A stretch of DNA of 64,000 bases, taken from a virus. Taxonomy: Duplodnaviria > Caudoviricetes. The stretch covers positions 1 through 64,000 of IMG/VR virus record IMGVR_UViG_3300031994_000045; one strand, given 5' to 3'. The notes under the pieces were generated by a model that was not told where the DNA came from, did no database searches, and saw only the letters and a list, made by a program, of their open reading frames with translations. Every line of letters begins with the position of its first letter. The first letter of the stretch is position 1. The position numbers and the translations under genes are program-made. This document shows, in pieces, positions 1-40,512 of this stretch.

Positions 1-3000
1 TGGCTGGCCGCGGCTGTTCCCGCGGACTGGCCGGCTCGCGCCGCCCGCGCGTCCCCGGTCCCGGCGTCCGCCACCTGGCCGAGAAGCGATTCGTCCGAGA
101 GGACTTCCTCGATCTGCCGCTTCCTCTCGAGTATCGCGTCGCGGGTCGCCTGCGAATCCTCGGGGTGCCGTTCCGGCTCGTACTCCCTGAAGTACCGTAT
201 CGCGTTCAGCAGTTCCCTGGAACGGCCCGAGATTATCGGCGTGTCGTACTTGCCCGGGTTGGCCACGAAGTCGTCGTACATCGCGTTGAACCCGGCCGGC
301 GTGCCGATATCGGTCGCGAAGTGCTTGTACATCGTCTTCCGCAGGTTGCCGAGCTCCGCCGCCATCTCCGCGTCGTTCGCGGCGTAATACAGCCCCCGCT
401 TCGACCACGTGTCCTCCGATCCCGGTATCTTCTCCTCCTGCGGATCGATCGGCTGCCCCGTCTGCCGCTGTATCAGGTTGAACCCGTGTCCAAGGACCTC
501 GTGAAACGCGGCGTCCAACTGCGAGGACGGCAAATAGGTGACCCCGCTCGTCCAGTGAGCCGCCCTGTCTTTCTTCCTGCCGCGTGCGCGGGCGATGACG
601 GAGTCCGCGTCGGAGCCCCGGACCACCGGGTCCCGCTCCGTGAAGACCTGCTTTAGCGGGTTCATCATGTCGAAGACGTAGTTGCCCGCGGATCCCTTCT
701 TGAACGTGCCGAAAACGTTCGACACGTTGCGCCCCGTCTTTCCGGACTTGTCCCTCCCGCCGGCCGCGAGCCGCTTTGCGACGACCGACTTCTGGATCTT
801 GTCCGCGTCGTCCCCGTAGAAGTAGGCCATCATGTCGTCCACGCTCGCCGCCGACTTCGGGTCGGCCAGCACGTGCGACAGGAGAGCCACGTCGTCCGGG
901 TGCTTGTATTGGCCCGTCCCCGGATACGTGGCGAACAGGTCGTCGCGCGGGTGCAGCGCCTTGTGCGCTTCCGCGACCGCACGGATCCCCGCGGCCCGGT
1001 CCGTCTCGTTGGCGATCTTCAGCTTGCGCATGTTGTCGATCGCCCTGAGGTACTTGGCTTTCTTTGGCGAGTCGCCGCCTTTGTTCGCGGCTTGGACCGG
1101 CGGCTCCTCGGGCGGCGGCTCCTCGGGCGGCGGCTCCTCGGGCGGCGGCTCCTCGGGCGGCGGCTCCTCGTCCCCGAGGTCGTAGAACCCGGCGGCCTTC
1201 GGGTTGCGCCTGAAGAACTCCAGGTCCTCCTCGGTATGGCCGCTCGACACGACCGGAATCCCGAACAGGACGTCAGGCACGTCGTCGGTCGCGAGGAAGT
1301 TCGAGAACGCCTCGCCTCCCTTGCGGTCCTGCTGGACGTCCACGGAGCGGAGCGGGCGGTAGGTCTCGTCCGCGAAGTGCCGCTCGAACAGGTCTTCCGT
1401 CAGCTCGTCCGACAGCCACGGGTCTTCGCGGGTCTTGCCGAGGAAGTCCTTGACGGCCGCCCTCACCTTCGCGTTCTTCTGCTGCGACCAGTCGACGTTC
1501 GCGTCCTTGTACTTCTTTTTGATCGACTGGAGTATGTCGCTGCGCTTGCGGTTCAGGCGATACAGCGAGCGAAGGGCGGCCTTGGCCGCGCGGGCGTTCA
1601 CCGTGTCGCGGGCGGTCCTCGGCAGCGCGTCGAAGAGCCGTATGTATTCCTGCGACGTGACCTGGCCTAGCGCCGACGAGAGGATCTCGTCCGGGTCGAG
1701 CCCGTTCATGCGGGCTTCCTTCATGACGAGCGTGCAGAGTCGCGCGAGCTTCGCCTTGTTCGACGGGAACGACCACGCGTCGTTGTGCCGCGAGTCGCGG
1801 ACGAAGTCCAGGAGGATCTTCTTGATCTCCTTCTGGGACCGCGTCTTGGACGTGCCCTGGTTGACCGGGCCCATCATGCCGAGGAATCCCGTGTCCGGAT
1901 GCCCGGCGACGGACGCGGCCGAAAACGGCAGGAACCCCGTGAGGAAGTTCGTCAACGCGTTCACGTCCGGGTCCAGGCGCATCGTGAAGACACGCTCGGC
2001 GAGGGTCAGGTCCTCGAACTTCTTTCCGAAGCTCTGCCCGCTCACGGTCCCCCATATCCCCTCGATCGTCTTCTGGAGCGGGATCGACGTCTTGCTCATG
2101 GCCTGCGACCATCCGTCCGTGAACCAGCGCCAGAACTCGTCGTTCTGCTTGCCGAAGTGCATGTACTGCCTGCGGAGCCCCGTCGTGTTCGCGTCCCTGC
2201 CGACGCCCTCGGACGCCGGGATGAGCGCGCCGATGTTCCGGCCGGCGAATCCGCCCGCCAGGGTGCCCCACCATTTCCTCGTCACGGCCGCGCCGGCGAC
2301 GGTGCCGAGGACCGTTGTCACGAACGGCCACGCCCCGCGCTTGTTCTTTATGTCCACGAGGGTGGACCCTTGCCCGGCGGCGGCGCCGGCGGCGGCGCCG
2401 GCGGCGGCGCCGGCCAGACGCATCCACCACGGCCCCCTTGCCGCCAGCGCTCCTATCGCGGCCCCCGCGGCGCCGGTGCCCCACGCCGCCGATCCGTCCG
2501 TGCGCCCGAGCAGGCGCGTGATCGGCGTGACGTCGAACGCGAGGGATCCGACCTTGGACTCGTTGAAGAAGCAGAGCCACGGCATGTCGTCGATGCCGAG
2601 CGGGTCCTTGTCGTCCTTGTCGTCGGGGTCTCCGACGGCGCCCGACTTCACGAGCGCCGTGGCGAGCGCCTTGATCCCCAGCTGCAGGAAGACCGGGACG
2701 CCGATTTTTATGATCCCAAGCATCCTCAGCCAGCGGATGAACGCGCGCTTCCTCGACGCTTCCGTCGTATGGTGCCCGCCGAACAGCAGGTCCGTCACGA
2801 CCTCGCCGGTGCCGGCCACCCACGCGCCGAGCGTCCACTGGTAGGAGAACATCCCGAGCCGCAGCAGCTGCTGCATCCCGGGGGTGAGGAACGCGTAGCG
2901 CTCCGGCTGGATGCCGCCGATCTCGGCGTTTATGTACGCGGAGTGCCTCCGGAGCTCCCGCACGGGGTCGAACGGACGGCCGGCCTTCTCGCATTCCTCG

Positions 3001-6000
3001 CGGAGACGGAACATGGTCTGCGCGACCACGGCCATCTTCACGCCGTTGAGGACGTTGGAGAACGCGTATTCGCCCGGGTTGTGGAACGCGGCCTTCATCG
3101 CCGAACGGACTTCCTTCGCCATCTTCGTGTGGCCTTCCGCCGCCAGCCAGCGGCTGATGCGGTCTATGTCCGCGTCGATCGCGCCCTGCCGGTTCGTGAG
3201 GGGGTTCATGACGGAGTCCGTGAGCGGCATGTTGATCATGTCGCAGAGTTCGCGCATGTACCGTATCGACGGGTCGTCGGACGTGATCGAGTTCAGGAAG
3301 TCCGCGAGGTACGGCAGGTTCTTCCTGAAACCGAGGAACTCCCCGACCTTCGTGCCCGCGAGCCGCCGCGCGAGCTCGGCCGTGTTCTTCCGGTAGCCCA
3401 TCGCCGTGTTCCAGAACCCGCACGCCGCGACCGGCGACTCGAACCTGGTCGCGAACGCGAAGAACGCCGAAAGCCCGACGGACGCCGCCTTCGAGTACGA
3501 CACCGCCCGGTCCAGCACGCGGTGCCCGGCCCACACGGTCGGGGCCTGCACCGACCCGAACAGCTGCCGCAGGTAGCCCTCGGCCTCGCTCCCGTTCGGG
3601 CGCATGATCCGCTCGCTCGCGAACTTCGTGAGTATGTTCACGTCGTCGCTCGCGCTGTCGTCCGCGCACCAGATCTCGTCGAAGAGGCCGCGCGCCCCGA
3701 TCTCGTCCGGCGGCAGGAGATGGTAGCGCGCCCTGGCGTCGTCCTTGGACTTGGCCTTCGCGAGCGCGCCGGCCGCGGTCGCGATCGTCTGCATGTTGGC
3801 GAACCCCGACTTGCCGGCGTCGTACTTGACCATCCCCTCGACGGACCGCAGCCTGTCGAGGACGAACCTCGCCGTCGCCTGCCAGAACTCGTCGGGGAAG
3901 AGCCCCTGGGAATCCTCGGACGGCTTGACGACGAAGTTCGGCGCGCCGTCCGTGCCGACCGTGGTCAGCATCTGCGCGAGGCAGCCCCGGAACCGCTCCG
4001 CGTGCGTGATGGACTCCGCCATCGACCGGAGGCGCTCCGTCGCGGACTTGGAGGATCCGAGCCTGCCCTGCGTCCGGAACATGTCCTGCTCGGACATGGA
4101 GCAGATCCTGCCGCGGACGGCCATGTCCGCCTCCTGGTCGTCCATGATCTTCTGCTGGAGCTGCCCGTGCAGGTGGTACACGTCCACGAGGTCCTGCCCG
4201 CCGTAGCCGCATCCTCCTTCGTCGTAGGCCATGGTGAGCGGGGTGTGCCCGGGGTCGCCCGGGTGCTGGGCCTCCGTGACGACGTGCGCCGTGATGATGT
4301 CGAAGACGAGCCGGTCGAACTCGAACACCGTCATGTCGGGACGGATGTCGAACCCGTAGATGCTGCTCGTGTTCGCCTTCGTGTACTGCCCGGCCAGGAT
4401 CTGCTTGAGGAAGCCCTCGACGTCCGCCACGCGGCGGCCGAGCCCGAGGACGCGGCCGAGGTACATGAGCTGCCTGTTCGAGATGTTGGCGAGCTGCCCG
4501 TCGCTCCCGCGCTCGAACGCGCGCAGGTTCCCGAGGATCTCCCTCTCCTCCCTCTGCTCCATGCGCCCGTCCGCGTTCCGCACGTAGTACCGGTGCGTGA
4601 CCTCCTTCGAGTGGCTCTTCAGCGTGTCCTGCAGCGCGGCGAACTTGTTCCTCAGGTATTCGTCCGTGGAGATCTCCCCGCGGAACAGCTCCCTCGCGTT
4701 CTTCAGCTTGTCTACGATGGCCTGGTGGTGTCCGGTGCCCGCCTCGAACCAGAGGCCCTGCGCGCGTCCCGACAGCGCGCGTCCGGCGTCGGACTCCGAG
4801 AGCCACCTCGACCGCCCCGCGATCCTGTTGAGCCTGTTGGCCTCCGCGGCGACGACCTCCGCGAGGTAGTCCATGTCGAGGAGCTCCGCGCGCCGGCCGC
4901 CGTTCCTGATTAGCTCCGTCCGGTAGGAGTCCTCGGACTCCCATGCGCGCTTCACCTCGGAGGCGGGGACCACGAGCACGACGCGGTGGGTCGCCGGGGA
5001 CTCGTCGGCGAGCCCGGCTTCCTTCAGGATCTTCGTGACGCGCTGGTGGAAGTCGGCGTCGCCGATGCTCACGCCCGCGGTCCTTGTCCGCCCGACGTCG
5101 TGGAACGCGTTCAGGATCTGGACGTAGATCCCGTCCGCCCTAAACGCCTTCCTCTTCGCGTCCCACCCGAGCACGGACCACGGTATGCCCTCGAGCATCC
5201 GGTTGAGGAGCTGGTCGAGGTTCGACGGGCGCCCGGCGCTCGCCACGTGCCCGTAGAGGCGGTTGAACACCGCGTCCGGAGAGTACGCGTGGCCCTCCGC
5301 CGTGGCCGAGGCCATGTCTCCTTCGGCCTCCCCGGCGGCCTCCAGCACCGACTTGAGGATCCTCCGGTCGACGTACGGGATGTCGTAGCCCGTGTACACG
5401 CCGTGCCCGTTGGCCATGCAGGCGACCGTCTGCGACACGAAGTGGACGAGGTTCACGTCCTCCTTCGTCATGGCGCGTCCGGCGGTCTTGGCCGCGAAGT
5501 TCACCAGCCCGAGGAGGATCCCCCGCACTCCCGCGACCTTCTTCACGGAATGGCGATGCCTTTCCTCCACGGTGAACAGGCCTTCCTGGCCCCCCTCCCC
5601 GAAGCCCAGGTCCGACGTGCCTTCCTCTATCTGGTTGGGCGACTCGCCCGGCATGCAGTTCGCCGCGAGGTAGAAGTCGATCATGTTCGCGACGCGGTTC
5701 GTCTCCTCGGTGGCCGCGTTCAGGGACACGTCCGTCATCATGTCGCGGAACGACCCGCCGTAGAACTGCTTTTGGAGATCCGACGCCTGCCACGAGCCGG
5801 GCAGCTGGAGTATGAGCTGCGGCGTCAGGTCGGGCTCCAGGACGCCCTCGGCCGGAGGGACCGCGAGCGGAACCTCCTGCGTCGGCGCTTCCCGCGTCGG
5901 GATCGTCGCGTCCTCCCCCGGCGCCGGCTGGTCCATGCCGTTCTCCCGCACGAACCTCCGCACGACCTGGGCGACGCCGAGCGCCTTCGCGGCCGCGTCG

Positions 6001-9000
6001 ATCGCGTCCTGCACGAACCGCGACGAGAAGTCCAGCGTCCCGTTGCTGAAGCCGAACGCCTTGCCGGGCTCGTACCGGACGGACCCGTCCGCGTTCCTGT
6101 GCATGGTGGCCGCGCCCGTCATGTACTGGAGGATGTATCCGAAATAGTTCGACGCGGCCTGCTCCTCCGTCCATCCGCGCCGGTCCGAAAGTCCCCAGAA
6201 CGACGGGATCATGCGCTTCAGGGGCTCGCCGTTCATGACGGCCGTGACGAATCTCACGACGTCCCGCGCCCTGTGCCTGCAGGCCTCGGCCTGGAGCTCG
6301 AACCGCTTCGCGTCGCTCTCCACGTCTGCGGGAACGTCTCCGTCCGGGAACCTGGCGCGGGCCGCTTTCGCGCGCGCCTCGAGGTCCTCGGCGGCCTTCA
6401 TGAACCAGTCCCGCGACGCTTCCGCGCGGCCGCGGCAGAACTTCGTCCACTCCGACGGAAGGACCCCGGCGAGCATGTTGCCCATCACGTAGTCGGCCGA
6501 CGCGAACTGGGCGGGGGACGACGGGACGTCTTCCGGCGTCCCGTATTCGTTCTCGGCCTTGCGCCGGACCGAATACTCGTGCACGAGCCTGACGACGAAG
6601 CCGGCGATCTTCTCGTCCGACATGAGCTGCCGGCCGAGGTCGTTCAGTGACTTCGTCCCGTCCTCCGCGTAGTCCCAGACGTCCAGCCCGAGCAGGTCGC
6701 ACACGTGCCCGAGGAGCCGGTGCGCGGTGTATGCCATGAGCTCGAAGTCCGGCCCGTCCGCCTCCCCTACGTCGGCCTTGTCCCTGAACTTCGCCACGGC
6801 CTCCGCGATCCCCGCGAGCTCCCCGCCCGCCGGGCTGCCCACGCGCTCCAGCGCCTCCCTGAACAGGAGGGACACGCGGTCTCCGACCGGGACGGACGGA
6901 TCCGATATCCGCTGGGCCAGCGTCGGGCCGGAGGGTTCCTCCGCGGGCGGCACCGGAGGCTCCTCCTTGCGGCCGAGCATGTCTCCCATGACGGCGTCGA
7001 ACGTCGTGCGGTTCTCCGGCTTCCTGCCGTCCCTGACGAACTTCGAGGCGGCAGCCTTCACCTCGTCGAACCCGCAGGCTCCCGCGCGGAACTCGGCGAC
7101 CAGCCCCGCGAGGTCCGTTCCGTCCGCCCCGATCTCCCCCTCCATCCGCTCCCACCTGTCGGGCGCGCCGAAGTCCACCTTTTCGCCGAGGAGCAGCTTC
7201 TCGAGCTTCTTCTCCTGCCCCGCGTCGAAGTCCAGGACCTCCTTCGCGTCGCGGCTCGAGAAGTCGGCCGAGATCATCATCTTCATGAACACCGGGACGC
7301 CCCGGGCGTCGTACGCGAGAGCGCAGGACAGGTACGCCTGCGCGGTCCTCCTGAACTTCTCGAACGTCCTCTCCGGGTCTCCGACCCCGGCGGCCAGGAG
7401 CTTGCCCCGGACGGTCCGCGCCTTGTCCCCCGTCACGTAGTCGGCGAACGCGTCCGCGGCCGCCTCCTCGTCGAAGCGGCCGTCGGCCGTCCGGTACTTC
7501 TTCAGCAGCGCGGCCTCGTCCTCGGCCGTGCAGACGCCGGTCTTGCGGTAGAAGTCCAGCATCTGGTGGAAGTACTCGTGGAAGAGGGTGTGGTAGGACG
7601 AGACGTCCGACAGCCTGATGACGCCCGAGAGGGCCATGAGGGCCCTCGTGCCGAGATACTTCTCGGCCTTCGCCGACGTGCCCTTCACGCGGAGCCCCGC
7701 GGCGTTCGCCATCGCGACGCGCTCCTCCTCGGTCAGGGACAGCAGTTGCTCCATCGTCATCTTCTGCCCGGCGCCGTCGTTCACGGCGTTGAGGATGGCC
7801 TGGTTGTAGTTGGCGTTGTTCGCCTTCATCGCGAGGAAGTCGCCGTAGGAAACGTACGTCACGACCTCCTTCGTCTCGGCTTGCCCGTTCTCCTCGACCT
7901 TGACCTTGCGCGTGATCCTCAGGAGGTTGGACGGGACGCCGTTCCCGCCGACGACCCGCTCGACCTTGCAGCCGGTCTCCTTCGACCAGTCCCCGAACAC
8001 GCGCTCGAGCGCGGCGCGGATGTTGGCCTCCGGGTTCGCGAAGAACCTGTCCTTGTCCTCGGGATGCTTCCCCTCGAGGAACGAGAACAACCCCGTCCGC
8101 CGCAGGCGCGTCGCGGCGAACGACGGATCGGCGACGCCGGACCGGATCGACGGGACGTCCAGCGCCGTCGCGGCGTGGGTCCGCACGAAGTCCTCCAGCT
8201 TGTCCCGCATCAGCGGGCTCGAGATCCGCGACAGCGCGTCGCCTCCGTCGAACGCCGCGCTCTGCGCCCACTCGGAGAACTGGCTCCCGTAGTCGGTCCA
8301 CGCCCGCTCGAGCACCTCGTCGATGGCCAGCCCGTAGTTGAGCAGCTCTCGCTTCCTCGCCTGGGCCCCGTGCCCGCCGGCGGGGGTGGCGGCGACAGTG
8401 CTTTCGCCGTACCTCCCCGTACGCATGCCGCGGGCGCGCCTGCCGAACTCCGTGAGGTCCCAGGAGAACGCCTTCGTCTCGTTGCGCGGGTCCGCGAGCC
8501 ACGCCGCCATCTTCTTGTCTGCCGCGAACGCCGCGAGCTTCTCCGACACGAAGTCGTTCACGGCCTCCTCGATCGTGAAGAACTCCCCCGACGGGCCCCT
8601 GAACCGGACGCCCTTGATCGACGTCTGCGGACGGAGCTTGTGGCTCTCGCCCTCCATGTACGCCGACACGATCCTCCGCCGGCCGGGGCCCCCGGGCGCG
8701 AAGCGCCCGTCGCGGACGGACGTGTCCCTGTGGATGGCGTGCGGCGACGTGTATTCGGCGCGCGCGATGTAGTGCAGGACGGAGAATGGGGTGACGAGCC
8801 GCTGCGTCGCGGGGTGGTCCAGGTCCTCGCGCGTCACGTCCGGCATGCCGGACAGCGCGGCCACCCTGCGGGCCAGCCGCAGGTCGAGGTCGGCATACGC
8901 GCTTCGGCGCGCGAACAGGTTGTATCCTGCGGCGCCCCTCGGGACCATGCAGAGCTGGCGCAGCACGGGATTCTGCGTGACCGCCGCGCCCCACCGCTCC

Positions 9001-15000: not shown

Positions 15001-18000
15001 GACGACGTCGACCCGGACGGGAACAGGCGCGACATCGCGTGCGCCACGGACGCGCGGACGGAAGACACCGACGCGAGGCCCGCGCTTCCGAACGTCTCGA
15101 GCGCGCCGACACCGTCGTAGTCGGCGACGGTGACGCGGTTGACGTCGAGGGGCGCCATCGTGCCGATGAGCGCGAGGGCCTGCGCGCGGCGCTTTCCGGT
15201 CGGCGGGATGTTCCGCACGCCGTTCAGGACGAACGCGAGCTCGTCGTGCCCGGCCGCGTGCAGCGCCGACACCGCCCTGGAGAGGACCGCTCCCGTCGTC
15301 TTCAGCTCCGCGGAGACCCGCGACGAGTCATTCCACACGCCGGTCGCGTCGGAGATCCTCCCGGCCGCCATGCCTTCGCGCATGGAGCGGAACACGTTGA
15401 ACAGCATCGCCAGCGGCTCCAGCGCGTCGGCGCGGGACAGCCTCGCCGACCTCTCGGCCTCCAGCTCGGCGATCGCCTTGGCGGGCGCGTCCGTCCCCTT
15501 CAGCCGCTCGGCCTCGGCGGCCAGCCTGTCCGCGGCCTCCCTCTCGGACCGGACGATCCTCGGGATCTCCGCGGACATCCGCGCGAGGACCTGCGTGAAC
15601 GCGCCGCCCTCGGACGGGAACACGTAGCTCCACTGCCGTCCGAGGTCCATCAGATCCTTGTTCTCTATCGCGGCGTTGGCGCGCTTCGCGTCGAAGAAGA
15701 TGTCCTGGTTCCCGGAGCCGTCCGAGATCGTCTCCGCGAGCGAGGCCCACTCCTCGTCGTCCTCCCTCTCCTCGGCGTTCCCCGCCCCGGCCGGCTCCTC
15801 GGCTCCCGCCGCGTCCACGAACATGGACCATATCCGGTCCGCGTTCGCCTTGTAGCATCCGCGCTCGAACAGGAACCGCAGCACGGCGAACCTGGACTTG
15901 AGGGCGAGCTCGCGCCCGCCGGCGCCCCCGGGCGGCGCGCTCATGAGCCCGGGGCTCAGGAACTGGAGGTTCCGCCCGGCCGCGAACGCGACGTCGTCCG
16001 GGACGACGTCCGCCGCCTGCGGGCGCACGACCTTCTTGTCGGTCTCCGAGGACACCCCGCCGAACCCGCTGCCGATGCTGGGGGCCTCGTCGCCCGCGTC
16101 CCCGCCGCTGTCGAGCGCGTGCTTGAGCACCCTGTACATCTCGGCGGAGCTGATCGTCCCGCCGGCCTTCCTGTACGCGTCGGCGAACGCCTTGCACTTT
16201 CCTCCCACGGCCCCGACGAGCAGGCGGACGCTGCGCTCTGCGACGTCGGTGAAGTTCGTCACGGTGGTGTCGTCGATGACCGGAGGGACGCCGGAGGCGA
16301 GGCCGGCGGCGCTCATGTCCCCGGGGACACCGTACCACTGGAACACGATGCCCGTCTTCCTGGCCCCCTCCCCGCCGTTCGTGAACATGGCGGACGCGCG
16401 CGACGCCATGAGGTCCGGGCCGGAAGGGGCGAACGCGTCGAGGAACCGTCCGAGCCCGTCGAGCCGAATCGTGCCGTCCGGACCCGCCGCGTCCTCGGCG
16501 AAGAACCCCCGGCCGCCCAGCGACTCGTCGAGGGCCGAGATGAACAGCGGGACCCACGGGCTGCGGCGGGCCCGGTCCGCCACGTAGGCGAGCTCCGGGC
16601 CGAAGAGGAACCCGTTGCCGTACTCGTTCAGCCCGCGCTCGTCGCTGAACACGGCGATCGCGGCGGCGATGGCGCCCATCCTGGACGGGTTCACGCGGCC
16701 CGGCGAGGAGGGCAGGCTCGCCATCGCGTCCCTCACGCGCTGCGCCATCTCGGGGTTGCTCTCCTCGAGCTCGGCGATCGCCTCGTCCGCGGCGCGGGTG
16801 AACGCCTTGTCCATCTCCCACAGGATCCCGACGAACGCTGACGGGTCGTCGAACGCCTTGCCCGGCTTGGTCGCGGCGTCGTAGATGGCGCGAGAGAACG
16901 CCGAGCGGAGCATCATCTCCGAGTCTCCGCCGGAATAGTAGTCGCTCTGGAGGTAGACCGTGTCGCCGAACGCTATGCCGTTCGGCCGGATCGAATAGCT
17001 CGCCTCCCCGCGGTACGTGTCGGTCGCGGCCGCGTCCTGCTTGCTCCTCGTGATCCCGAAGCGCTCCAGCATCAGCTCGGCCGCGCGCTCGTAGCCGACG
17101 GAGAACGGATCCCCTTCCTTTCCGGTACCGCGCACGTACCGGCGCGTGTCCGCGTCGTCGGCCGCGAGCTCGGCCGCGAGCGCGCGGGCCGTCGCCTCGT
17201 CGTCGTCCTGCTGCCAGTCGCCGTCCACGCGACGAAGCTGGGGCGGGTAGAGAAACTCGTCCACCTCGATGCCCTTCTCCCGATCCACCCCGTAGAACGC
17301 CTCGTACGCGGCGCGGGCCTTCTCCCTGGTCCCGTGCAGCAGGAGGACGAGGGACGTCGCGTCCTTCGACGAGATGCTGTCGTTCTGCAGGACCGCGAAC
17401 TCGCGCCACCTGGCGACGACGCCCCGCCGCACGGTCGCGACGCCGTCCGGACCGACCTGCGTCACGTCGCTGTACGTTCCGTCAGGCTTGGGGACGGGAA
17501 CCTCCTCGAGCATCCGGGTCGCCTCCAGCACGGTCGAGCCGGTGACGGACACTCCGTTCGCGGTCAGCGTGACGGTCCGGTTGCCGTCCTTGTCGCGACC
17601 GTACGACGTCGTCACCTCCGCGGTCGTCCCGTCGGCGTACTCGAACGCCATCGGCTCCGAGTTCTCCACGGCGAGCCGGAGCTGCGTGAGGTACTGCGCC
17701 GCGGCCTGCTGGTTCTGCGCCTCCGTGAACTCGCCGTAGTACCGTCCCATGGCGAACATTACCCGGCGGAGGTCGCCGGGGGCCAGCTGGCCGGAGGGGT
17801 CCAGGCGAAGAAGCTCGCCGACGTCCACCGTGCGGGCGAGGGCCGCGTCCTTCACGTGCCCGCCGTTCGACACGTCGTACACGGCGCGCATGTTGCGGAA
17901 GGCCGGCATCGCCCTGATCGCCGCGACGACCTCCGGCGTGTTGCCGTAGCGCATCGCGCGGTCGTAGCTGAAGGCTATGCTGGTCGTGTTGACATTGCCG

Positions 18001-21000
18001 AACCTCGAGTGCGTATTCATCGCCACCGCGTCGCTCGCGGCGATCCTCGCCAGGCCTTTCACGATCTCCGCCTTCGCCGCGGCCATCTCCTTGCCGGCGA
18101 CCGCGGCGCGGAACTTCTCGTCCCGGAAATCCTCCGTCGTCTCCGTCCCGAACCGGTACACGACCTTGCCGCCGGACTCCTCCCGGTGCTTGTGGGCGAC
18201 GACGCGCAGGGCGGCCTCGTTGACGTCGCCTTTCGACACGGCGAGGACGTTGCGGGCGGCGAGAAACGTCTGCGCGTACTCGCGGAGGGTCGTGCGGTAT
18301 TCCTCCTCCCCCTCCTTCTTGAACTCCTCCAGAATGTCGCCAGAGACGTCGCCGAGGGACCGGCGCCGCAGGGCCTCCGCGTCTTCCGCCGTCATCTTCC
18401 CGTCCCCGACCATCCGCTGGAGATACCGGTCCCGGCCGGCCTGGACGGAGCGCTCGTACAGCTGGCCGACCTCCCCCATGAGCTGCCTGGGGAGCTGCGC
18501 TTCCTCTATCGCCCACTGGACCGGGTTGCGCGCGGCGAGCTCCAGGCGGCCCGTCGTGATCGCATCCAGTATGCCGGTGACGCGCATGAGGGCCCGGCGG
18601 CCCCACCAGTGGCTCTGGCCGAGCTTGTACTTGAAGTCGAGCCACTTCTTGCCGAGCCTGCCCATGGCCTCGGCCGTCTCCCCCGCGTAGTCGGAGGAGA
18701 ACTGGTTGACCTGCACGCCCTCCCGGACCGAGAGCCGTTCCCTGACCTCGGCCGTCAGCGCGGCGTCGTTCGACACGAAAGGCAGCGCGGCCGTGATCTC
18801 GCTCGCGACGGTGCCCGCGTCGGCGTCGTCCGTCAGCTTCAGGTCCGGGCCCCGCCTGACGAACTCGGCGTACTCGCTCCCGTCGGCGAGGGCCTTCCGC
18901 TTCGCGGCGTCCATGTACCCGGGGTCCTTGCGCTTCAGCCGCTTGATCGCCTCGACGCCTTCCTTGCCGAACAGCGCCTCGGCCTGGTGGTCCGCAAGCT
19001 GCTTTTCCAGGTCCGCCTCGGTGTTCGAGAGGTCGATGATCCGCTGGGCCTTCTCCCGGAGAAGCGTCTCCATCTCGCCGTCGGAGATCTTGGCGTCGGA
19101 GATGTCCTTGTTCTTGTCGTTCGGCACGAACGACTTGTCCGCCAGGGCGGCCTTGACGGCCTGGGCCCGCGTGGGGGCGCGGGTGTCCTCCACGACCTCG
19201 CCGTCCACCTCCACGGCTCGTCCCGGCCGAGACTCCGGATGCCCCAGCACGTCGGCCCACGCCTTCTCCTCCCCGCCTTCTCCGACGGTCGCCTTCTCGT
19301 AGAGCGCCTGCGCCCCGGCATTGTAGTCCGAGAGCGCCTTGGCCGCGCCCTCGGAGCCGGCGGTCAGCGTGACGGTCGGCTCCGTGTTCTGGTTCTCCGC
19401 GATCAGCTTCGCGTCGTCCAGGGTCTCCGAGACCACCCCCGCCCCGAGGCGCGAGTAGAGGGAGTTCATCGTCAGCTGCGTCACCGCCGGGAACGAGAAC
19501 GACACCGCTTCCACGAGAAGCTGGTGCGGGTCCGGAAGCAGGCCGTGCATGGCCGCGGCCCACCGGTCTCGGGCCGTCGAGTCGGACGGTGAGTCGTCAA
19601 GCCCCATGAGCCCCTGGAAAAACCCGCCGTAGCGCTCCTCCGCCATCTCGGCGAGCACGCCGTCATACCCGACCCGCTGGAGCCACGACGCCATCTTCTG
19701 GGGCGTCCAGCCCTTCTCCAGCATGTTGTGCGCGACGAAATATGTCAGCCCGGCACGCATCTTGGTCAGCTTGAGCTGGTCCACCATCGCGGCCTTCACG
19801 AGGTCCTTCTCGCTCTTCAGCCCGAGCCTGGACAGAACCTCCTTGATGTTGCCGACCCCCTTCGCGCCGGCCACGATCTGCCCGACCTGCGTCTTCGACA
19901 TCGTCGGAAGCGCGGCCGAGGCGCCGCCGGTCTCGACAAGCCGCGCCGATCTCTTCCCCAGGTAGTCCGCGACGGCCTGCGTGAGCCGGGTGCGGTTGGC
20001 GGCCTCCATCATCTTCTTCGTCCCGAACACCGCCTCCAGCTTGCGGGACATGTACGAGCCGACCTCCCTCGTGGCGGCGAGGAAGGGCGCGTTCTTGAGC
20101 GTGGGCGCGGCGACGCCCTCGGCAAGGATGTTGAACCCCCGGCCGGACGATTCGGATATGTACTCGACGAGACCGGACCCGATGGCGATCGCGCGGGCAT
20201 GGTCCATCATTTCCCGGTCGCCGGTCTGCAGCGCCGTGGACTGGATGCCGAGCTGGCCCCGGACGACGAAGTCCCCCGGGCCGTTGCCGGTCGCGGCGGA
20301 CACCACGGGCCACAGCGGGACCTGCATCCCGAACTGCATCGCCCCGCGCACGGGCGCCTCGACGAACGAGGCCTTCAGCGCCTCCTTGAACGCGGCCATC
20401 TTCCCTCCGAGCACGGTTCCGCTGCGCATGATCGTCCCGGCCCCGTGGTAGATCGACGTGTCCCACCGCAGCATGCCGTCGAGGATGCCGTCCCCGACCC
20501 ACCGCGCCACGCGCTGCGCCCCGTTCACGAACCCCGTGCCCTTGTACTTGAGCATGAAGCTCCTGGTCGCGTTGTTCACCAGGTGCTCGGCCACGTCCGA
20601 GGCGTATCCCCGGCTGACGGCCTGGCCGCCCAGCGACTCGCTGATGGACCCGGTGACGGCCGTGACGGCAGACGGCCGACCGAGCGCCTTGTTCATCGTC
20701 GCCGTGAGGTACGACGCCTTCAGGTTGTTGATCTCCTCGCCGGTCAGCTTGTCGAGTCCCTTCCGCACCGCCGCACGGTCGGCCCAGTAGTTGGCGAAGC
20801 CTTTCCAGAACCCATCCTTGGCCCTGTCCGGCACGGTGCCGTACACCTTCGCGAGGGCCGCCCTCTCGAGCGACTGCACCCACCCCTGCTCGACCATGTT
20901 CGCGGCGTCCCCGTTCACCAGGAATATCTTGGCGAGCCTGGCGTCCATGGTCAGGTCGGCCACGTCCTTGAACGACTCCGCGGTCCACCTCGTGGCCTCG

Positions 21001-22286
21001 AACGAGGTGCGGCGCCGAAGCTCCGACTTCGCGGCGTTCTGCGTGGCGTATGCCGAGAACTGCTGGGACGTCCAGTCCTTCACCGCCTCCGCCCCGAGGT
21101 TCTTCTCGGCAAGCTCCCGGCCGACCGACTCGTACGCGCGGGTCTTGCCGACCTCGCGGGCGGCCTGGGCGACCTCGCGGACGGACTTGCCCGTCGCCTT
21201 GGCCGCGAAATCGACGGCGGCGGACCTCTCCGCCTTCTTGTAGCCTTCCGTGAACAGCCGTCCGGCGAGCCCTTCCATCATCGGGTTCGCCACGGATTTG
21301 GCCGCCAGTTTCCGAACCGCCCCCTTCACGCCCTTCGTGAGCAGCTTCGACAGCAGCCGGCCGCCCCCGAACACGAACCCGCCGACCGCGCCTATCGCCC
21401 CGCCGACGGCGGCTCCGATGCCCGTGCCTATGCCGGGGCCCAGAAGCGTGCCGATGGCGCCGCCGACCATCATGCCGGCCTTGGCGGCCATCGCCGTCAT
21501 CGCGCTCGCCCCGGCCACTTCCACGACGAACGGGACGGACGAGCGGATGGTCGATCCGATCTGGTACGAGGTGCTCCTGCGCGACTCGAGCTCCTGCTGG
21601 AGCATGAACCGGCGGACCGCGATCGCCTCCCGGTTCGTGACAGGCTCGCCGTCCTGCATCTTCCGCATGGCCTTCGAGATGGAAATGCTTTCGGACACGG
21701 TGGAACCCATGTCCATCATCCACCCGAGCCACGGGACGTTCCCCAGGTTGAAATCAAAAGCTCCCTTCCAGAACCCCTCCTCCTGGTAGGCTCCGGTCCG
21801 CTGGGCCTCCATGAGCTTCACGAGCTTGCGGCCCTCTTCGTCCTTGTCGAGCTCGGCGCGCGTGAACTGCCTGCCGAACACGTTGGCCGCCTCCACGTAC
21901 GACGTGCCCTTTCCGAGCTTGGCCCCGCGTTCTCCCCGCGGGTCGTAGTCCAGGTCGTAGAACCCGACCGTCGCCTGGAACGGGCGGGCCTCGTCCGACG
22001 TCCCCTCCGCCCACTTCACGCCGATCCTGTGCAGCGCGCCGGACCGAAAACTCGGATTCGCCTGCTCCTTCGGCTCGGAAAACTCGGAGTCGGGCGACCC
22101 AAGCAGGCCAAGGTCGCCGGTCAACGGGGAGAACGGGTCCGCGTGCTCGACGTCGCCGACCACCGGCTGCCGGACGGCAGGCCGGGCCTGCGGGGCCAGC
22201 GGGGAAAACGTCGTCTGTTCCTGTTCGTCGTCGAACGGGTCGGCAAATCCGTCTACCCGCGGGCGAAGGGGCTCGAATGTAGGCAT
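1..22286 (-). CDS. Giant virion (ejection) polyprotein, >7,400 aa, containing a two-barrel (DPBB) RNA polymerase and zincin-like domains; 3'-partial
   Basis: ATG at 22286 with AAGGAG RBS and an upstream promoter. The track lists no minus-strand ORF in this frame between 1 and 22286, implying no stop codon. The long plus-strand ORFs (165, 873, 1785, 4986, 6705, 17334, 19728) all sit in its mirror frame. Spot translations are protein-like throughout (MPTFEPLRPR...). Motifs: FFAGDRRPSGN (11664-11693), QGSDTDGDS (11520-11546), TLFHEYFH (7566-7589), FHEVLGH (486-506). Confidence 0.9.
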   Translation of the reverse strand, partial: MPTFEPLRPRVDGFADPFDDEQEQTTFSPLAPQARPAVRQPVVGDVEHADPFSPLTGDLGLLGSPDSEFSEPKEQANPSFRSGALHRIGVKWAEGTSDEARPFQATVGFYDLDYDPRGERGAKLGKGTSYVEAANVFGRQFTRAELDKDEEGRKLVKLMEAQRTGAYQEEGFWKGAFDFNLGNVPWLGWMMDMGSTVSESISISKAMRKMQDGEPVTNREAIAVRRFMLQQELESRRSTSYQIGSTIRSSVPFVVEVAGASAMTAMAAKAGMMVGGAIGTLLGPGIGTGIGAAVGGAIGAVGGFVFGGGRLLSKLLTKGVKGAVRKLAAKSVANPMMEGLAGRLFTEGYKKAERSAAVDFAAKATGKSVREVAQAAREVGKTRAYESVGRELAEKNLGAEAVKDWTSQQFSAYATQNAAKSELRRRTSFEATRWTAESFKDVADLTMDARLAKIFLVNGDAANMVEQGWVQSLERAALAKVYGTVPDRAKDGFWKGFANYWADRAAVRKGLDKLTGEEINNLKASYLTATMNKALGRPSAVTAVTGSISESLGGQAVSRGYASDVAEHLVNNATRSFMLKYKGTGFVNGAQRVARWVGDGILDGMLRWDTSIYHGAGTIMRSGTVLGGKMAAFKEALKASFVEAPVRGAMQFGMQVPLWPVVSAATGNGPGDFVVRGQLGIQSTALQTGDREMMDHARAIAIGSGLVEYISESSGRGFNILAEGVAAPTLKNAPFLAATREVGSYMSRKLEAVFGTKKMMEAANRTRLTQAVADYLGKRSARLVETGGASAALPTMSKTQVGQIVAGAKGVGNIKEVLSRLGLKSEKDLVKAAMVDQLKLTKMRAGLTYFVAHNMLEKGWTPQKMASWLQRVGYDGVLAEMAEERYGGFFQGLMGLDDSPSDSTARDRWAAAMHGLLPDPHQLLVEAVSFSFPAVTQLTMNSLYSRLGAGVVSETLDDAKLIAENQNTEPTVTLTAGSEGAAKALSDYNAGAQALYEKATVGEGGEEKAWADVLGHPESRPGRAVEVDGEVVEDTRAPTRAQAVKAALADKSFVPNDKNKDISDAKISDGEMETLLREKAQRIIDLSNTEADLEKQLADHQAEALFGKEGVEAIKRLKRKDPGYMDAAKRKALADGSEYAEFVRRGPDLKLTDDADAGTVASEITAALPFVSNDAALTAEVRERLSVREGVQVNQFSSDYAGETAEAMGRLGKKWLDFKYKLGQSHWWGRRALMRVTGILDAITTGRLELAARNPVQWAIEEAQLPRQLMGEVGQLYERSVQAGRDRYLQRMVGDGKMTAEDAEALRRRSLGDVSGDILEEFKKEGEEEYRTTLREYAQTFLAARNVLAVSKGDVNEAALRVVAHKHREESGGKVVYRFGTETTEDFRDEKFRAAVAGKEMAAAKAEIVKGLARIAASDAVAMNTHSRFGNVNTTSIAFSYDRAMRYGNTPEVVAAIRAMPAFRNMRAVYDVSNGGHVKDAALARTVDVGELLRLDPSGQLAPGDLRRVMFAMGRYYGEFTEAQNQQAAAQYLTQLRLAVENSEPMAFEYADGTTAEVTTSYGRDKDGNRTVTLTANGVSVTGSTVLEATRMLEEVPVPKPDGTYSDVTQVGPDGVATVRRGVVARWREFAVLQNDSISSKDATSLVLLLHGTREKARAAYEAFYGVDREKGIEVDEFLYPPQLRRVDGDWQQDDDEATARALAAELAADDADTRRYVRGTGKEGDPFSVGYERAAELMLERFGITRSKQDAAATDTYRGEASYSIRPNGIAFGDTVYLQSDYYSGGDSEMMLRSAFSRAIYDAATKPGKAFDDPSAFVGILWEMDKAFTRAADEAIAELEESNPEMAQRVRDAMASLPSSPGRVNPSRMGAIAAAIAVFSDERGLNEYGNGFLFGPELAYVADRARRSPWVPLFISALDESLGGRGFFAEDAAGPDGTIRLDGLGRFLDAFAPSGPDLMASRASAMFTNGGEGARKTGIVFQWYGVPGDMSAAGLASGVPPVIDDTTVTNFTDVAERSVRLLVGAVGGKCKAFADAYRKAGGTISSAEMYRVLKHALDSGGDAGDEAPSIGSGFGGVSSETDKKVVRPQAADVVPDDVAFAAGRNLQFLSPGLMSAPPGGAGGRELALKSRFAVLRFLFERGCYKANADRIWSMFVDAAGAEEPAGAGNAEEREDDEEWASLAETISDGSGNQDIFFDAKRANAAIENKDLMDLGRQWSYVFPSEGGAFTQVLARMSAEIPRIVRSEREAADRLAAEAERLKGTDAPAKAIAELEAERSARLSRADALEPLAMLFNVFRSMREGMAAGRISDATGVWNDSSRVSAELKTTGAVLSRAVSALHAAGHDELAFVLNGVRNIPPTGKRRAQALALIGTMAPLDVNRVTVADYDGVGALETFGSAGLASVSSVRASVAHAMSRLFPSGSTSSQMSDTMSALDNLLLSTGSAKWFEKKKAGTPLRTKTIAELERILAPANEGAEIGAAFEKAPGDDKTLVAFANALVRRMAAVADALDYVIGPGNELAYALRSPDLLGGIVRSVRNAKDGAAMERVADDLLKLFRSCAASAELKSRCVLLSSAVLNPTIAAIQRATWTKGRTPTFSKEGEKKKQYDDIVSAGLSVGDLLGALSDDVIARLFARGNPQPQAAPRYQWFKNPMTGGAVSSYFDSVFKLYAASAPRSVERMSGTRQESIEDSSQVTATPASPPVMMMSIEDRLLAPLGVLDGYLQRGGRFEDGTRLVAVTAGARLENNRLVDKQHLSVIVANANISRFVRGDTRTGYFELYHGEKPTVYSVCLPHDVMQAVLDGIHAGADWAMNKVTRKMVEDGVLPRSVDDGTKLGTSADRDALYRAIYAVVASAARCDQIDPKRVQVLLAQGVPFSTYRDRMRKTVDGKVEEVDAAVTAMDGKTRVTPGLYCDILVSGNDAGENLGMYLNHGFLIESQRAQATNPRAVSFKNHVLGATFFKGQGHDFGLGMYETDPVPASGALAEACRVQRRRLEEVLGIKAGTLDLPAPDAPLSDEDKAYRESALKLVEAFFQSSTTFCTDMETVKTGSVSDKCGFFAKSGKPFTVKAGGKELTFGFEKDASGNVVRFDVRVDGETKSLLGGSHVVPAFKNSAASVTTMLPVIAKVLGKSELSAEDVGSIEAEWTLPTGEVTETKPLSESGLFQDYGTEDGDKLSVVASESGGFRVRYFTRTMSGQVMANSDASARPSLEHPAATNWTRDVVANSGRLRKMVPEQADFTWYATKAINVSRAVPYLLLRAQPGFFDELLKTDPDLYAAYRAHPNSQDVQERVVRRMNTVYAGAMKPYVNSMHAVLMGSGIKASEVTRNPDGTYSVKYSYSAGVTEYDKDCFRDARVLSAAEKAAFGVGRSYSSGQVNVLDPSFRYGWHLAENADLSEIRAAVDGSRKWSDAYRANLERLEQAYGPADEDMETVAYLAAYIEAFDRMRNRKVKAAMAKTLGAAFTDYTGKTLNENPSCDLMKVSFSDLFLGKRYGGDRFDLAAFEFRGDAQKKMDKNGARTIYLGGAFFAGDRRPSGNFESAGGLIRVQAPVLFDRASGQVDEHALYILPPLMNSSQGSDTDGDSTTGTVMSGKGLDRHDREILDQIHATIAARLKDAGADDLERFLGAEDTVNLLRTRFPQYFETETTEDGLEIVKPSRRFRELIGNVLLQEEIDNYRLMPNETQDEFGARDVNAMAGDRTIPDYGLAGRSPVGTKVVSGDVEMKSGGQAAALAAQVLGVDESEVAGEKYYDVFQRCIDKLSSHTMPTLDLLDPRVAAYLSGCAADANRARGVAVSLQAALEHLAGYADTDSYVRGLAPALYEERDGYRPIEDFIGHLDKISNALFDVVKDLFAPRAGWQAGLLNCLTARLLSDANEEYKAWRDAPKRSGTGPRWDDKWFFVKLVGFARDLHASDTTLPSLIAKANAFFDHSTRDTFLPGHERKTLLGMYNTMVLTKGGCIAKQAFKDVLLVKDGRLDIGEGQYGRYSKPVPSMPSLSKELSWFDAANDSMRPARGDMVPTCIDRLMKRIARALRMTEADFIDAEAREEAYNFGWRPASEIFGEETALAIADVLEGKNEGRPAGVDQATRVAVGLRFLSSADIGSALAAAKKDLSMFQALNDLLEAEDGLSPDTALRMGGSRATGLLGKMDRAIEGGAATGDAMSVAYLASALRLEDIAAGRNPLASDRSVRGDADFAEATEDPSDWAWYLGRTGQRPMSVADSDGNPANDEAVLFAVAREFAADYADLGTIQANRLNLSHLLGCVRAGVVKFGDAPYRKLVEDKYPSFAKALKGLVESALNKGTAAGMSQNVVDMLTMLRTDTRDITETDPETGEEVKVGEHNEVSLVLRASADAAKVLRAGYNELAARKDVVCSHGGTTFTGAELAACIQLSMCANEEFDPARDSNARGNVSAMFGSRVDEWERWGAAVTQNPVLRQLCMVPRGAAGYNLFARRSAYADLDLRLARRVAALSGMPDVTREDLDHPATQRLVTPFSVLHYIARAEYTSPHAIHRDTSVRDGRFAPGGPGRRRIVSAYMEGESHKLRPQTSIKGVRFRGPSGEFFTIEEAVNDFVSEKLAAFAADKKMAAWLADPRNETKAFSWDLTEFGRRARGMRTGRYGESTVAATPAGGHGAQARKRELLNYGLAIDEVLERAWTDYGSQFSEWAQSAAFDGGDALSRISSPLMRDKLEDFVRTHAATALDVPSIRSGVADPSFAATRLRRTGLFSFLEGKHPEDKDRFFANPEANIRAALERVFGDWSKETGCKVERVVGGNGVPSNLLRITRKVKVEENGQAETKEVVTYVSYGDFLAMKANNANYNQAILNAVNDGAGQKMTMEQLLSLTEEERVAMANAAGLRVKGTSAKAEKYLGTRALMALSGVIRLSDVSSYHTLFHEYFHQMLDFYRKTGVCTAEDEAALLKKYRTADGRFDEEAAADAFADYVTGDKARTVRGKLLAAGVGDPERTFEKFRRTAQAYLSCALAYDARGVPVFMKMMISADFSSRDAKEVLDFDAGQEKKLEKLLLGEKVDFGAPDRWERMEGEIGADGTDLAGLVAEFRAGACGFDEVKAAASKFVRDGRKPENRTTFDAVMGDMLGRKEEPPVPPAEEPSGPTLAQRISDPSVPVGDRVSLLFREALERVGSPAGGELAGIAEAVAKFRDKADVGEADGPDFELMAYTAHRLLGHVCDLLGLDVWDYAEDGTKSLNDLGRQLMSDEKIAGFVVRLVHEYSVRRKAENEYGTPEDVPSSPAQFASADYVMGNMLAGVLPSEWTKFCRGRAEASRDWFMKAAEDLEARAKAARARFPDGDVPADVESDAKRFELQAEACRHRARDVVRFVTAVMNGEPLKRMIPSFWGLSDRRGWTEEQAASNYFGYILQYMTGAATMHRNADGSVRYEPGKAFGFSNGTLDFSSRFVQDAIDAAAKALGVAQVVRRFVRENGMDQPAPGEDATIPTREAPTQEVPLAVPPAEGVLEPDLTPQLILQLPGSWQASDLQKQFYGGSFRDMMTDVSLNAATEETNRVANMIDFYLAANCMPGESPNQIEEGTSDLGFGEGGQEGLFTVEERHRHSVKKVAGVRGILLGLVNFAAKTAGRAMTKEDVNLVHFVSQTVACMANGHGVYTGYDIPYVDRRILKSVLEAAGEAEGDMASATAEGHAYSPDAVFNRLYGHVASAGRPSNLDQLLNRMLEGIPWSVLGWDAKRKAFRADGIYVQILNAFHDVGRTRTAGVSIGDADFHQRVTKILKEAGLADESPATHRVVLVVPASEVKRAWESEDSYRTELIRNGGRRAELLDMDYLAEVVAAEANRLNRIAGRSRWLSESDAGRALSGRAQGLWFEAGTGHHQAIVDKLKNARELFRGEISTDEYLRNKFAALQDTLKSHSKEVTHRYYVRNADGRMEQREEREILGNLRAFERGSDGQLANISNRQLMYLGRVLGLGRRVADVEGFLKQILAGQYTKANTSSIYGFDIRPDMTVFEFDRLVFDIITAHVVTEAQHPGDPGHTPLTMAYDEGGCGYGGQDLVDVYHLHGQLQQKIMDDQEADMAVRGRICSMSEQDMFRTQGRLGSSKSATERLRSMAESITHAERFRGCLAQMLTTVGTDGAPNFVVKPSEDSQGLFPDEFWQATARFVLDRLRSVEGMVKYDAGKSGFANMQTIATAAGALAKAKSKDDARARYHLLPPDEIGARGLFDEIWCADDSASDDVNILTKFASERIMRPNGSEAEGYLRQLFGSVQAPTVWAGHRVLDRAVSYSKAASVGLSAFFAFATRFESPVAACGFWNTAMGYRKNTAELARRLAGTKVGEFLGFRKNLPYLADFLNSITSDDPSIRYMRELCDMINMPLTDSVMNPLTNRQGAIDADIDRISRWLAAEGHTKMAKEVRSAMKAAFHNPGEYAFSNVLNGVKMAVVAQTMFRLREECEKAGRPFDPVRELRRHSAYINAEIGGIQPERYAFLTPGMQQLLRLGMFSYQWTLGAWVAGTGEVVTDLLFGGHHTTEASRKRAFIRWLRMLGIIKIGVPVFLQLGIKALATALVKSGAVGDPDDKDDKDPLGIDDMPWLCFFNESKVGSLAFDVTPITRLLGRTDGSAAWGTGAAGAAIGALAARGPWWMRLAGAAAGAAAGAAAGQGSTLVDIKNKRGAWPFVTTVLGTVAGAAVTRKWWGTLAGGFAGRNIGALIPASEGVGRDANTTGLRRQYMHFGKQNDEFWRWFTDGWSQAMSKTSIPLQKTIEGIWGTVSGQSFGKKFEDLTLAERVFTMRLDPDVNALTNFLTGFLPFSAASVAGHPDTGFLGMMGPVNQGTSKTRSQKEIKKILLDFVRDSRHNDAWSFPSNKAKLARLCTLVMKEARMNGLDPDEILSSALGQVTSQEYIRLFDALPRTARDTVNARAAKAALRSLYRLNRKRSDILQSIKKKYKDANVDWSQQKNAKVRAAVKDFLGKTREDPWLSDELTEDLFERHFADETYRPLRSVDVQQDRKGGEAFSNFLATDDVPDVLFGIPVVSSGHTEEDLEFFRRNPKAAGFYDLGDEEPPPEEPPPEEPPPEEPPPEEPPVQAANKGGDSPKKAKYLRAIDNMRKLKIANETDRAAGIRAVAEAHKALHPRDDLFATYPGTGQYKHPDDVALLSHVLADPKSAASVDDMMAYFYGDDADKIQKSVVAKRLAAGGRDKSGKTGRNVSNVFGTFKKGSAGNYVFDMMNPLKQVFTERDPVVRGSDADSVIARARGRKKDRAAHWTSGVTYLPSSQLDAAFHEVLGHGFNLIQRQTGQPIDPQEEKIPGSEDTWSKRGLYYAANDAEMAAELGNLRKTMYKHFATDIGTPAGFNAMYDDFVANPGKYDTPIISGRSRELLNAIRYFREYEPERHPEDSQATRDAILERKRQIEEVLSDESLLGQVADAGTGDARAARAGQSAGTAAAS
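1099..1170 (-). repeat. 15-bp tandem repeat encoding a (EEPPP)n linker in the giant protein
   Basis: GGCGGCGGCTCCTCG x4 perfect copies (1111-1170) plus one partial copy. Confidence 0.95.
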
Positions 22287-22312
22287 GCGCGTGTCTCCTT
22301 GTCGTGGGACGT

Positions 22313-26865: not shown

Positions 26866-26877
26866 ATTCAAGTCTCC

Positions 26878-38727: not shown

Positions 38728-40511
<1,784 letters not shown>

Positions 40512-40512
<1 letters not shown>

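Follow-up and report, generated by a model that had tools for sequence, protein, structure and literature searches.

A giant predicted two-barrel RNA polymerase polyprotein in a lineage of ruminant-gut phages

Introduction

In crAss-like phages, gp65, gp66 and gp67 are virion proteins that in some phages are fused into one huge polyprotein (Drobysheva et al., 10.1101/2020.03.07.982082). The same study established that gp65 carries a zincin domain, and that gp66, the virion RNA polymerase of Cellulophaga phage phi14:2, is transcribed from a host-type middle promoter, is packaged, and requires all three aspartates of its catalytic loop for activity (10.1101/2020.03.07.982082). Phage crAss001 stores about 5 MDa of cargo, including six copies each of three RNA polymerase-associated proteins totalling 694 kDa, along with a pair of smaller channel proteins (91 and 60 kDa; PMC10172136). 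Here we describe a giant open reading frame (ORF), at positions 3-22286 on the minus strand of a 64,000-nucleotide stretch of DNA (the window), which comprises bases 1-64000 of the 100,129-bp IMG/VR virus record IMGVR_UViG_3300031994_000045 (Caudoviricetes; hereafter G000), and which probably encodes a polyprotein of this kind.

Two further systems bear on the comparison. The virion RNA polymerase of coliphage N4 has the order membrane N-terminal domain, RNA polymerase, HExxH motif and helical C-terminal domain (PMC13434306), and gp96 of Thermus phage P23-45 is a virion protein of 5,002 amino acids (aa) that fuses a two-barrel RNA polymerase with metallopeptidase and membrane domains (PMC10770324). 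The kind of protein described here is thus already known from the crAss gp65-66-67 fusions, the N4 layout and P23-45 gp96. New here are a separate lineage whose members as a rule have a single chain of 6.4-7.9 thousand aa, a catalytic-loop variant particular to it, the placing of a crAss-type enzyme within an N4-like layout, and a C-terminal tip that can be exchanged. No description of this phage family was found in the literature covered, from which subscription journals were mostly absent.

We consider it likely that the giant is an RNA polymerase polyprotein that is packaged in the virion and ejected from it, and that the phage is lytic and probably has a short tail. This reading is based on the gp66-like fold of its core, sequence motifs kept in all 60 family members, its position in the virion gene block, the lysozyme tip of relatives, inserted domains of polyvalent type, and the precedents above.

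The giant ORF is a single protein-coding gene

Exact translation of the minus-strand frame from the ATG at 22286 to position 3 yielded 7,428 codons and no in-frame stop, in agreement with a preliminary description of the window, made from the sequence alone, which had claimed a stop-free frame of more than 7,400 codons. That the frame was missing from the program-made ORF list is explained solely by the default omission of open-ended frames. Its GC content by codon position was 0.65/0.47/0.94, the longest ORF in 200 composition-matched shuffles of its sequence was 585 aa, and substitutions relative to a 69%-identical relative fell mostly in the third codon position (0.22/0.16/0.39 for positions 1/2/3). 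The giant ORF was thereby confirmed as one real protein-coding gene. The plus-strand ORFs of 3378, 1042 and 904 aa (6705-16841, 1785-4913 and 19728-22442), earlier interpreted as its shadows, all lie in exact antisense register with it, and such long shadow ORFs stay open because the giant gene contains only six TTA, CTA or TCA codons in total among its 7,428. In the relative L003, shadow ORFs of the giant gene extend to 6,316 and 4,911 codons (3169-22119 plus and 7946-22681 minus), a warning to ORF callers for GC-rich giant genes.

The last 21 bases of G000 repeat positions 9-29, from which the genome is taken to be circular; bases 1-8 of the window arose as an artefact at the end of the assembly. 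Once circularised, the giant ORF terminates at a TAG stop at G000 position 100045, one base ahead of the ATG of an 871-aa gene. The ORF does continue past the window, as had been proposed, but trivially so: only 19 residues lie beyond it (residues 1-7428 being encoded within), giving a protein of 7,447 aa and 809 kDa. The circular junction was matched by a loose contig end from an unrelated sample (X5), and the relative P0001 (7,433 aa), from another assembly with a 100,061-bp contig, has an identical C-terminus and a difference of only 14 residues, beginning in short repeats. The likely source run, a sheep gut metagenome, has also been assembled separately, and that assembly was identical over 7-1127 and 1141-20000; it was probably built from the same reads, and is therefore a check of the assembly, not independent sampling. 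Its sole gap in coverage falls in an EEPPP repeat, at which Logan contigs break, so that the protein may be longer or shorter by a few such units. Related DNA was present in bovine and other gut samples from several studies.

A two-barrel RNA polymerase core

An AlphaFold model of residues 2751-3900 (10587-14036; this and all other features of the giant gene lie on the minus strand), built on 15 sequences, had a predicted local distance difference test score (pLDDT) of 81.8 and a predicted template modelling score (pTM) of 0.81. In three PDB searches with this model, phi14:2 gp66 (PDB 6VR4) was ranked first: by Foldseek with E 1.3e-3 and prob 0.94, in a second search with Z 9.1 (608 residues aligned, root-mean-square deviation (rmsd) 5.3 A), and in an exhaustive search with Z 9.3 (600 residues, rmsd 6.0 A), where it was the sole chain of 48,161 to attain a Z of at least 8. 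The first three structures were 6vr4, QDE-1 and RDR2, followed by P74 gp62 (Z 6.6), the phiKZ RNA polymerase, Rpb1 and beta-prime; cellular RNA polymerase subunits scored no higher than Z 6.0 and P23-45 gp96 scored Z 4.6-4.8. The alignment to 6vr4 covers chain residues 625-1641, spanning both barrels of gp66, whilst model residues 563-845, with the catalytic motif at model positions 832-838, align with isolated double-psi beta-barrel domains as well as with Rpb1 and beta-prime.

The model alignment and motifs together place a beta-prime-type double-psi beta-barrel at residues ~3313-3595 (11502-12350), which contains an R-x-P motif (R3537, P3539) and the predicted catalytic loop GSDTDGD (D3584, D3586, D3588; 11523-11543). 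Motif counts given throughout refer to a family set of 60 sequences including the query, 58 of them distinct in the core. The loop was found as G[SAC]D[TFMH]DGD in all 60 members, one of which has the canonical DFDGD, and the R-x-P motif, as R[RS]PSGN or RTPSYN, was likewise present in 60/60. About 620 residues upstream of the loop, K2956, H2958 and K2966-G-Q (13383-13421) were invariant in 28/28 alignment rows; the lysine pair K2956/K2966 we take, from what is known of cellular RNA polymerases, to be candidate beta-type barrel lysines. The region surrounding the catalytic motif ranks with the best-conserved parts of the giant protein, and the loop itself has low pLDDT in the model.

Since the structural matches, moderate as they are, were consistent with one another and accompanied by conserved sequence motifs, residues 2751-3900 are confidently predicted to fold as a two-barrel RNA polymerase, of the gp66 type and not the N4/T7 type, and by analogy with gp66 this core would have RNA polymerase activity. 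The earlier comparison of the giant to virion RNA polymerases therefore holds, with gp66 as the appropriate type. The size ratios on which the preliminary description drew were also correct (2.1 times the N4 enzyme and 3.4 times gp66), but longer proteins already known, namely P23-45 gp96 and the crAss gp65-66-67 polyproteins, were not considered. Of the folding and Foldseek searches that it suggested, those for the polymerase core produced a confident model with gp66 as best match, whereas the model of the C-terminal region was of low confidence.

Distribution and conservation of the protein family

Protein searches retrieved 56 full-length relatives, and three near-complete IMG/VR genomes found via their terminase constituted a more distant clade with giants of 6,428-6,574 aa. 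Family lengths ranged from 5,675 to 7,925 aa, with a median of 7,233, and identity in the core reached down to about 27%. The 59 full-length relatives, mostly from other assemblies, are colinear with the query along its length, and from these sequences a single giant chain is judged to be the normal state of the family. In a search for shorter forms, a weak one with 8,000 candidates scored, no stand-alone polymerase-only relative was found, only one truncated and one split form. The split forms P0066 and P0094/P0101 occur within a cluster of otherwise full-length proteins; P0066 is interrupted by one in-frame TGA (L009:20837-20839) just ahead of the catalytic loop, which may be an error, a mutation or a site of readthrough, whilst intact members of the same cluster have 7,873-7,910 aa. 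The family fragment P0049 (L006:125-9199) has an alignable polymerase region with a catalytic loop devoid of all three aspartates, and is possibly an inactivated form.

Searches of the giant protein against Pfam, NCBIfam and PDB sequences gave nothing significant, and a PHROG search gave weak matches only, mainly to tape-measure proteins on low-complexity hydrophobic stretches. Standard profile annotation thus overlooks such genes, here across 22 kb. The polymerase core and C-terminal region matched no phage record in an INPHARED tblastn search, and ESM Atlas matches (RdRP PF05183 at 0.83 and LPD22 at 0.85), all below 0.9, were treated as leads only. The only clear match to both the polymerase core and the C-terminal region was the BFVD/UniProt entry A0A516MBM4, an uncharacterised viral protein represented by at least four fragments of 1,317 aa, of which fragment 2 resembled the core (E 1.5e-7, TM 0.40), whilst the C-terminal region was matched by fragment 4 (E 6.5e-9). 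It shares the architecture and order of the giant, but has a length of about 5,300 aa, as estimated from its fragments, versus 7,447 aa. This match suggests that the architecture extends outside the gut.

Other regions of the chain

Residues 270-309 (21360-21479) form an uncharged, Gly-rich hydrophobic segment, a candidate for membrane-inserting helices. Hydrophobic segments were found within the first 450 aa of 58/60 members and within the last 1,500 residues of 59/60, and these presumably have a membrane role. Beyond the polymerase core, a zincin-like metallopeptidase was recognised at motif level from HEYFH (residues 4903-4907) and a downstream EE motif (7437-7604); HEY[FY]H was present in 60/60 members and the downstream acidic motif in 59/60, and no profile matched this region. 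The mainly helical C-terminal region (residues 5951-7040; 1167-4436), with a hydrophobic segment near 6516-6545, includes the most highly conserved part of the giant protein, residues 6200-7040. Its model was poor (pTM 0.29) and matched no crAss protein in BFVD; matches to TetR-like bundles in the PDB (Z<7) were dismissed as generic for a model of such low confidence.

Relatives carry additional domains at fixed hinges, including RadC (PF04002), ART-PolyVal (PF18760) and a domain named NADAR-like in its source database annotation. Further hinge inserts may be SLOG-like, RelA/SpoT-like and GNAT-like, as read, unverified, from their motifs. Domains of the RadC and ART-PolyVal type are typical of injected polyvalent proteins (PMC5512222). 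A close relative from run X3, about 98% alike, has a 497-base replacement at window positions 14124-14139, corresponding to residue ~2720, the same hinge at which other members have an enzyme domain inserted.

A variable and probably exchangeable C-terminal tip

The C-terminal region concludes with a conserved anchor of ~55 aa (residues 6986-7040; 1167-1331), which is also present in free-standing downstream genes of relatives. It is followed by a Pro/Glu-rich (EEPPP) linker of uncertain copy number (1092-1166) and a variable tip (3-1091), in this case an HExxxH-type domain (H7262) that is rare in the family and occurs otherwise only in P0026. Past the anchor and linker, members have from nothing to more than 800 residues, the commonest tip being a phage lysozyme (PF00959, E 2e-24 in relative G001). 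Tips are discordant with the core tree. For instance, P0011 and P0045 have 35% identity in the core and 99% over a 356-aa tip, P0007 and P0042 have 34% and 89%, respectively, whilst P0042 and P0043 are 94% identical in the core with unrelated tips. In the distant clade, the giant ends before the anchor, and a distinct gene further downstream carries the latter. Free-standing proteins of ~990 aa that combine anchor and tip shared 94% identity with the tip that P0097 has in fused form.

These comparisons suggest that lineages exchange the C-terminal tip after the conserved anchor, though the anchor can also give rise to short-read assembly chimeras. Such chimeras are probably not the whole explanation, since lysozyme tips are only 69-77% alike across distant clades. 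The 871-aa gene directly after the giant (L001:17297-19912 minus; G000 97426-100041) has N-terminal nucleotidyltransferase-like motifs and no Pfam match, and in G001-G004 a module of ~110 aa found within it is encoded by a conserved gene of its own, downstream of the giant.

Transcription signals and genome context

A Shine-Dalgarno sequence, AAGGAGA (22294-22300), lies 7 nt ahead of the ATG and is the same in relatives, and a sigma-70-type promoter with an extended -10 (TGnTATAAT) was predicted from consensus at 22313-22341, with the extended -10 reading TGGTATAAT at 22321-22313. Both signals recur upstream of the giant gene in six relatives (L003, L008, L009 and G002-G004), which supports the prior assertion that the gene has its own ribosome-binding site and promoter. 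The extended form accounts for nine of the 12 TATAAT sites in G000, including that of the giant gene, and these stand ahead of structural and replication genes. No TGnTATAAT site was present in the early region at 59-77 kb, as would be expected if a phage polymerase transcribes it. No repeated 14-mer (at least four copies) that might mark candidate early promoters was found in 57-97 kb.

The giant gene is the last in a conserved block that comprises the terminase, portal, scaffold, capsid, 328-aa, low-complexity (813-aa), 127-aa and 567-aa genes, and was within the virion operon in every relative examined. The terminase large subunit (36062-37900, minus, as are the following) was recognised by ATPase and nuclease motifs, and is the only gene of the block with a family match (phrog_2 in 1/8 relatives, E 8.8e-8). 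The putative portal (32128-34830) was assigned from size, position and conserved synteny, and the putative major capsid protein (27917-29950) from position and conserved synteny, neither having a family match. The conserved 328-aa gene after the latter (26878-27864), which had no significant PDB profile match, is a candidate head-tail adaptor. Candidate ejection or cargo proteins are encoded by a Q/R/A-rich gene of low complexity, at most 813 aa in length (24430-26871), and, judged from its position and size, by a 567-aa gene directly upstream of the giant (22339-24042), the position of which is conserved in L008 and L009.

The genome has about 67% GC, and on the opposite strand are genes that resemble by their motifs DNA polymerase A, primase, helicase, exonuclease and resolvase. 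No tRNA genes were found, and because no integrase was present among the ORFs read, the phage is probably lytic. No crAss-type terminase, portal or capsid was evident, there being no tblastn match in 50,697 GenBank phage records (INPHARED), no crAss PHROG and no PDB profile match, and at the level of sequence the phage does not appear crAss-like.

Several other loci were observed outside the conserved block. A lower-GC gene at 44219-45643 (minus; region about 52% GC), with leucine-rich-repeat-like repeats and matches to uncharacterised PHROGs, sits in a variable tail-fibre-like region that also holds collagen-like repeats (38728-41001). Two large Ser/Thr-rich genes (48695-52666 plus and 53083-56784 minus) are candidate tail parts, the former being inverted relative to the virion module here and located directly after terminase in G001. 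A 91-kb contig with a related terminase (L047/G007:C18) and a giant frame of 7,364 codons was present within a GTDB genome titled uncultured Anaeromicropila sp.; it was regarded as a probably binned phage contig and not as evidence of the host. The 63-kb record G005 (L025) encodes a 26%-identical terminase and no detectable giant polymerase gene, and is a possible outgroup for dating the gain of this gene.

Comparison with described systems

The giant shares with phi14:2 gp66 (6VR4), the crAss polyproteins and crAss001 gp47/gp49/gp50 a single-chain two-barrel fold, a DxDxD loop and a zincin motif outside the polymerase core, as well as a host-type promoter before the gene and a ~100-kb genome. 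Its core, as with the gp66-type fold, is closer to QDE-1/RDR than to cellular RNA polymerase. The two upstream cargo-sized genes (567 and up to 813 aa) are comparable, by size and position only, with those of 60 and 91 kDa in crAss001. However, the loop is GSDTDGD as opposed to DFDID, identity to gp66 is about 10% with no sequence-level match, and 809 kDa are contained in one chain as opposed to 694 kDa over three proteins in crAss001. The capsid, portal and terminase without crAss PHROG or phage-record matches, the GC content of ~67% and the exchangeable tip also distinguish this phage from the crAss-like phages. Homology of the flanks of the giant to gp65 or gp67 was not detected, the C-terminal model being poor.

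The N4 virion RNA polymerase gp50 (Schitoviridae) has the same domain order, which we regard as an analogy of layout. It is likewise the third gene of an ejection operon and has associations with lysozyme and ART domains (PMC13434306; PMC5512222). The N4 enzyme is a T7-like single-subunit polymerase, whereas that of the giant is two-barrel in a chain twice as long, and no structural match of the giant to N4 was found. P23-45 gp96 is a giant virion protein that likewise joins a two-barrel RNA polymerase, metallopeptidase and membrane domains, but it is the tape measure of a long-tailed phage with an N-terminal polymerase, whilst here the polymerase is central and closer to gp66, with no clear tape-measure context. 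Polyvalent proteins (Iyer et al. 2017) resemble the giants in the zincin-like metallopeptidase, RadC, ART-PolyVal and lysozyme domains of members and in a virion-gene setting, but the RNA polymerase module noted for them is N4-like only (PMC5512222). None of the LPD Pfam families matched the giant protein.

Proposed function and alternative explanations

In the mechanism we propose, the giant would be produced late, along with the head genes, from its host-type promoter, which matches a conserved consensus. A few copies would be packed in the capsid and leave it at infection together with the products of the two upstream genes, as the gene position, crAss001 and N4 suggest; six copies, the number given for crAss001, would amount to 4.9 MDa. 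The hydrophobic segments near both ends may anchor the chain in the cell envelope, where the part distal to the C-terminal segment, the tip, would open the cell wall by means of a lysozyme in many relatives and of the HExxxH domain here. The central two-barrel polymerase would then refold in the cytoplasm, transcribe early genes and perhaps pull the DNA in. The zincin motif may serve to cleave the chain or to regulate it. An arrangement with the polymerase and zincin on the inner side of the envelope and the lytic tip on the outer would be compatible with this anatomy. The chain would also be a carrier, into which relatives insert enzyme domains at fixed hinges and on which they swap the tip at the conserved anchor.

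Some observations weigh against this proposal, namely that about 5,000 residues have no assigned fold, that structural similarity is moderate by score (TM-score 0.24, identity about 10%), that the P0049 fragment has lost the catalytic loop, and that capsid, portal and adaptor were assigned by position or size only. A fusion of polymerase and tail tape measure of the kind seen in P23-45 gp96 is unlikely; at the length of the giant, it would call for a tail of about 1.1 micrometres. Weak PHROG matches to tape measures at residues 243-554 and about 6550-6940 (E ~1e-5) and the similar combination of domains in gp96 (PMC10770324) point in that direction, yet these matches are limited to Gly/Ala-rich hydrophobic stretches, the polymerase is not N-terminal, gp66 is a far better match (Z 9.3) than gp96 (Z 4.6-4.8), and family lengths vary freely through the insertion of globular domains. 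Neither was a tail-tube or assembly-chaperone gene order recognised upstream, most virion genes there being without assignment. A non-virion polymerase, or a giant cytoplasmic enzyme synthesised once infection is under way to serve middle or late transcription, would accord with the host-type promoter and with the resemblance to the non-virion P74 gp62 (Z 6.6), but is decidedly improbable given the position in the virion operon and the hydrophobic segments and lysozyme tips, which would be useless to a purely cytoplasmic enzyme; moreover, the structural genes themselves have host-type promoters, and gp66 is packaged despite having a host-type middle promoter.

The unusual DTDGD motif, the loop lost from P0049 and the low pLDDT of the loop in the model could indicate that the polymerase domain is a catalytically dead scaffold within an ejection protein. 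To this we attach very little probability, as the three aspartates and R-x-P are kept across 60 diverse members, the candidate barrel lysines are likewise retained, the surroundings of the motif are among the most conserved, and the second position of the loop varies between T, M, F and H, including the canonical DFDGD. An assembly artefact that fused several genes has next to no likelihood: P0066 and P0094/P0101 are split within an otherwise full-length cluster, but the split of P0066 is that single TGA, and fusion by error is ruled out because full-length members, mostly from other assemblies, are colinear, with the separate source-run assembly also in agreement. We thus retain the packaged and ejected polymerase polyprotein as the preferred reading.

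A more far-reaching version of this reading, which we regard as doubtful, is that the 0.8-MDa chain is ejected and, without being cut up to any great extent, carries out all steps of entry by itself, with a membrane segment towards each end, a cytoplasmic polymerase that transcribes and pulls the genome, an outward wall-degrading tip, and an exchange of cassettes via the 55-aa anchor, which would also tag free-standing genes for loading into the particle. If true, this would represent a polymorphic-toxin-like system within the ejection apparatus of a phage family without a cultured member.

Implications

The crAss-type virion RNA polymerases, proposed relatives of the eukaryotic RNAi polymerases, are extended by this work to a separate lineage of phages from the ruminant gut that seems not to have been described, and its polymerase family, which is new and well modelled, is available for testing. 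The mass of 809 kDa is relevant to the quantity of unfolded protein that can be packed by a phage and passed through its tail, and the exchangeable tip offers a direct route to studying how phages adapt their entry enzymes. The combination of a crAss enzyme with an N4 layout suggests that the chassis of ejected polymerases accepts either polymerase type.

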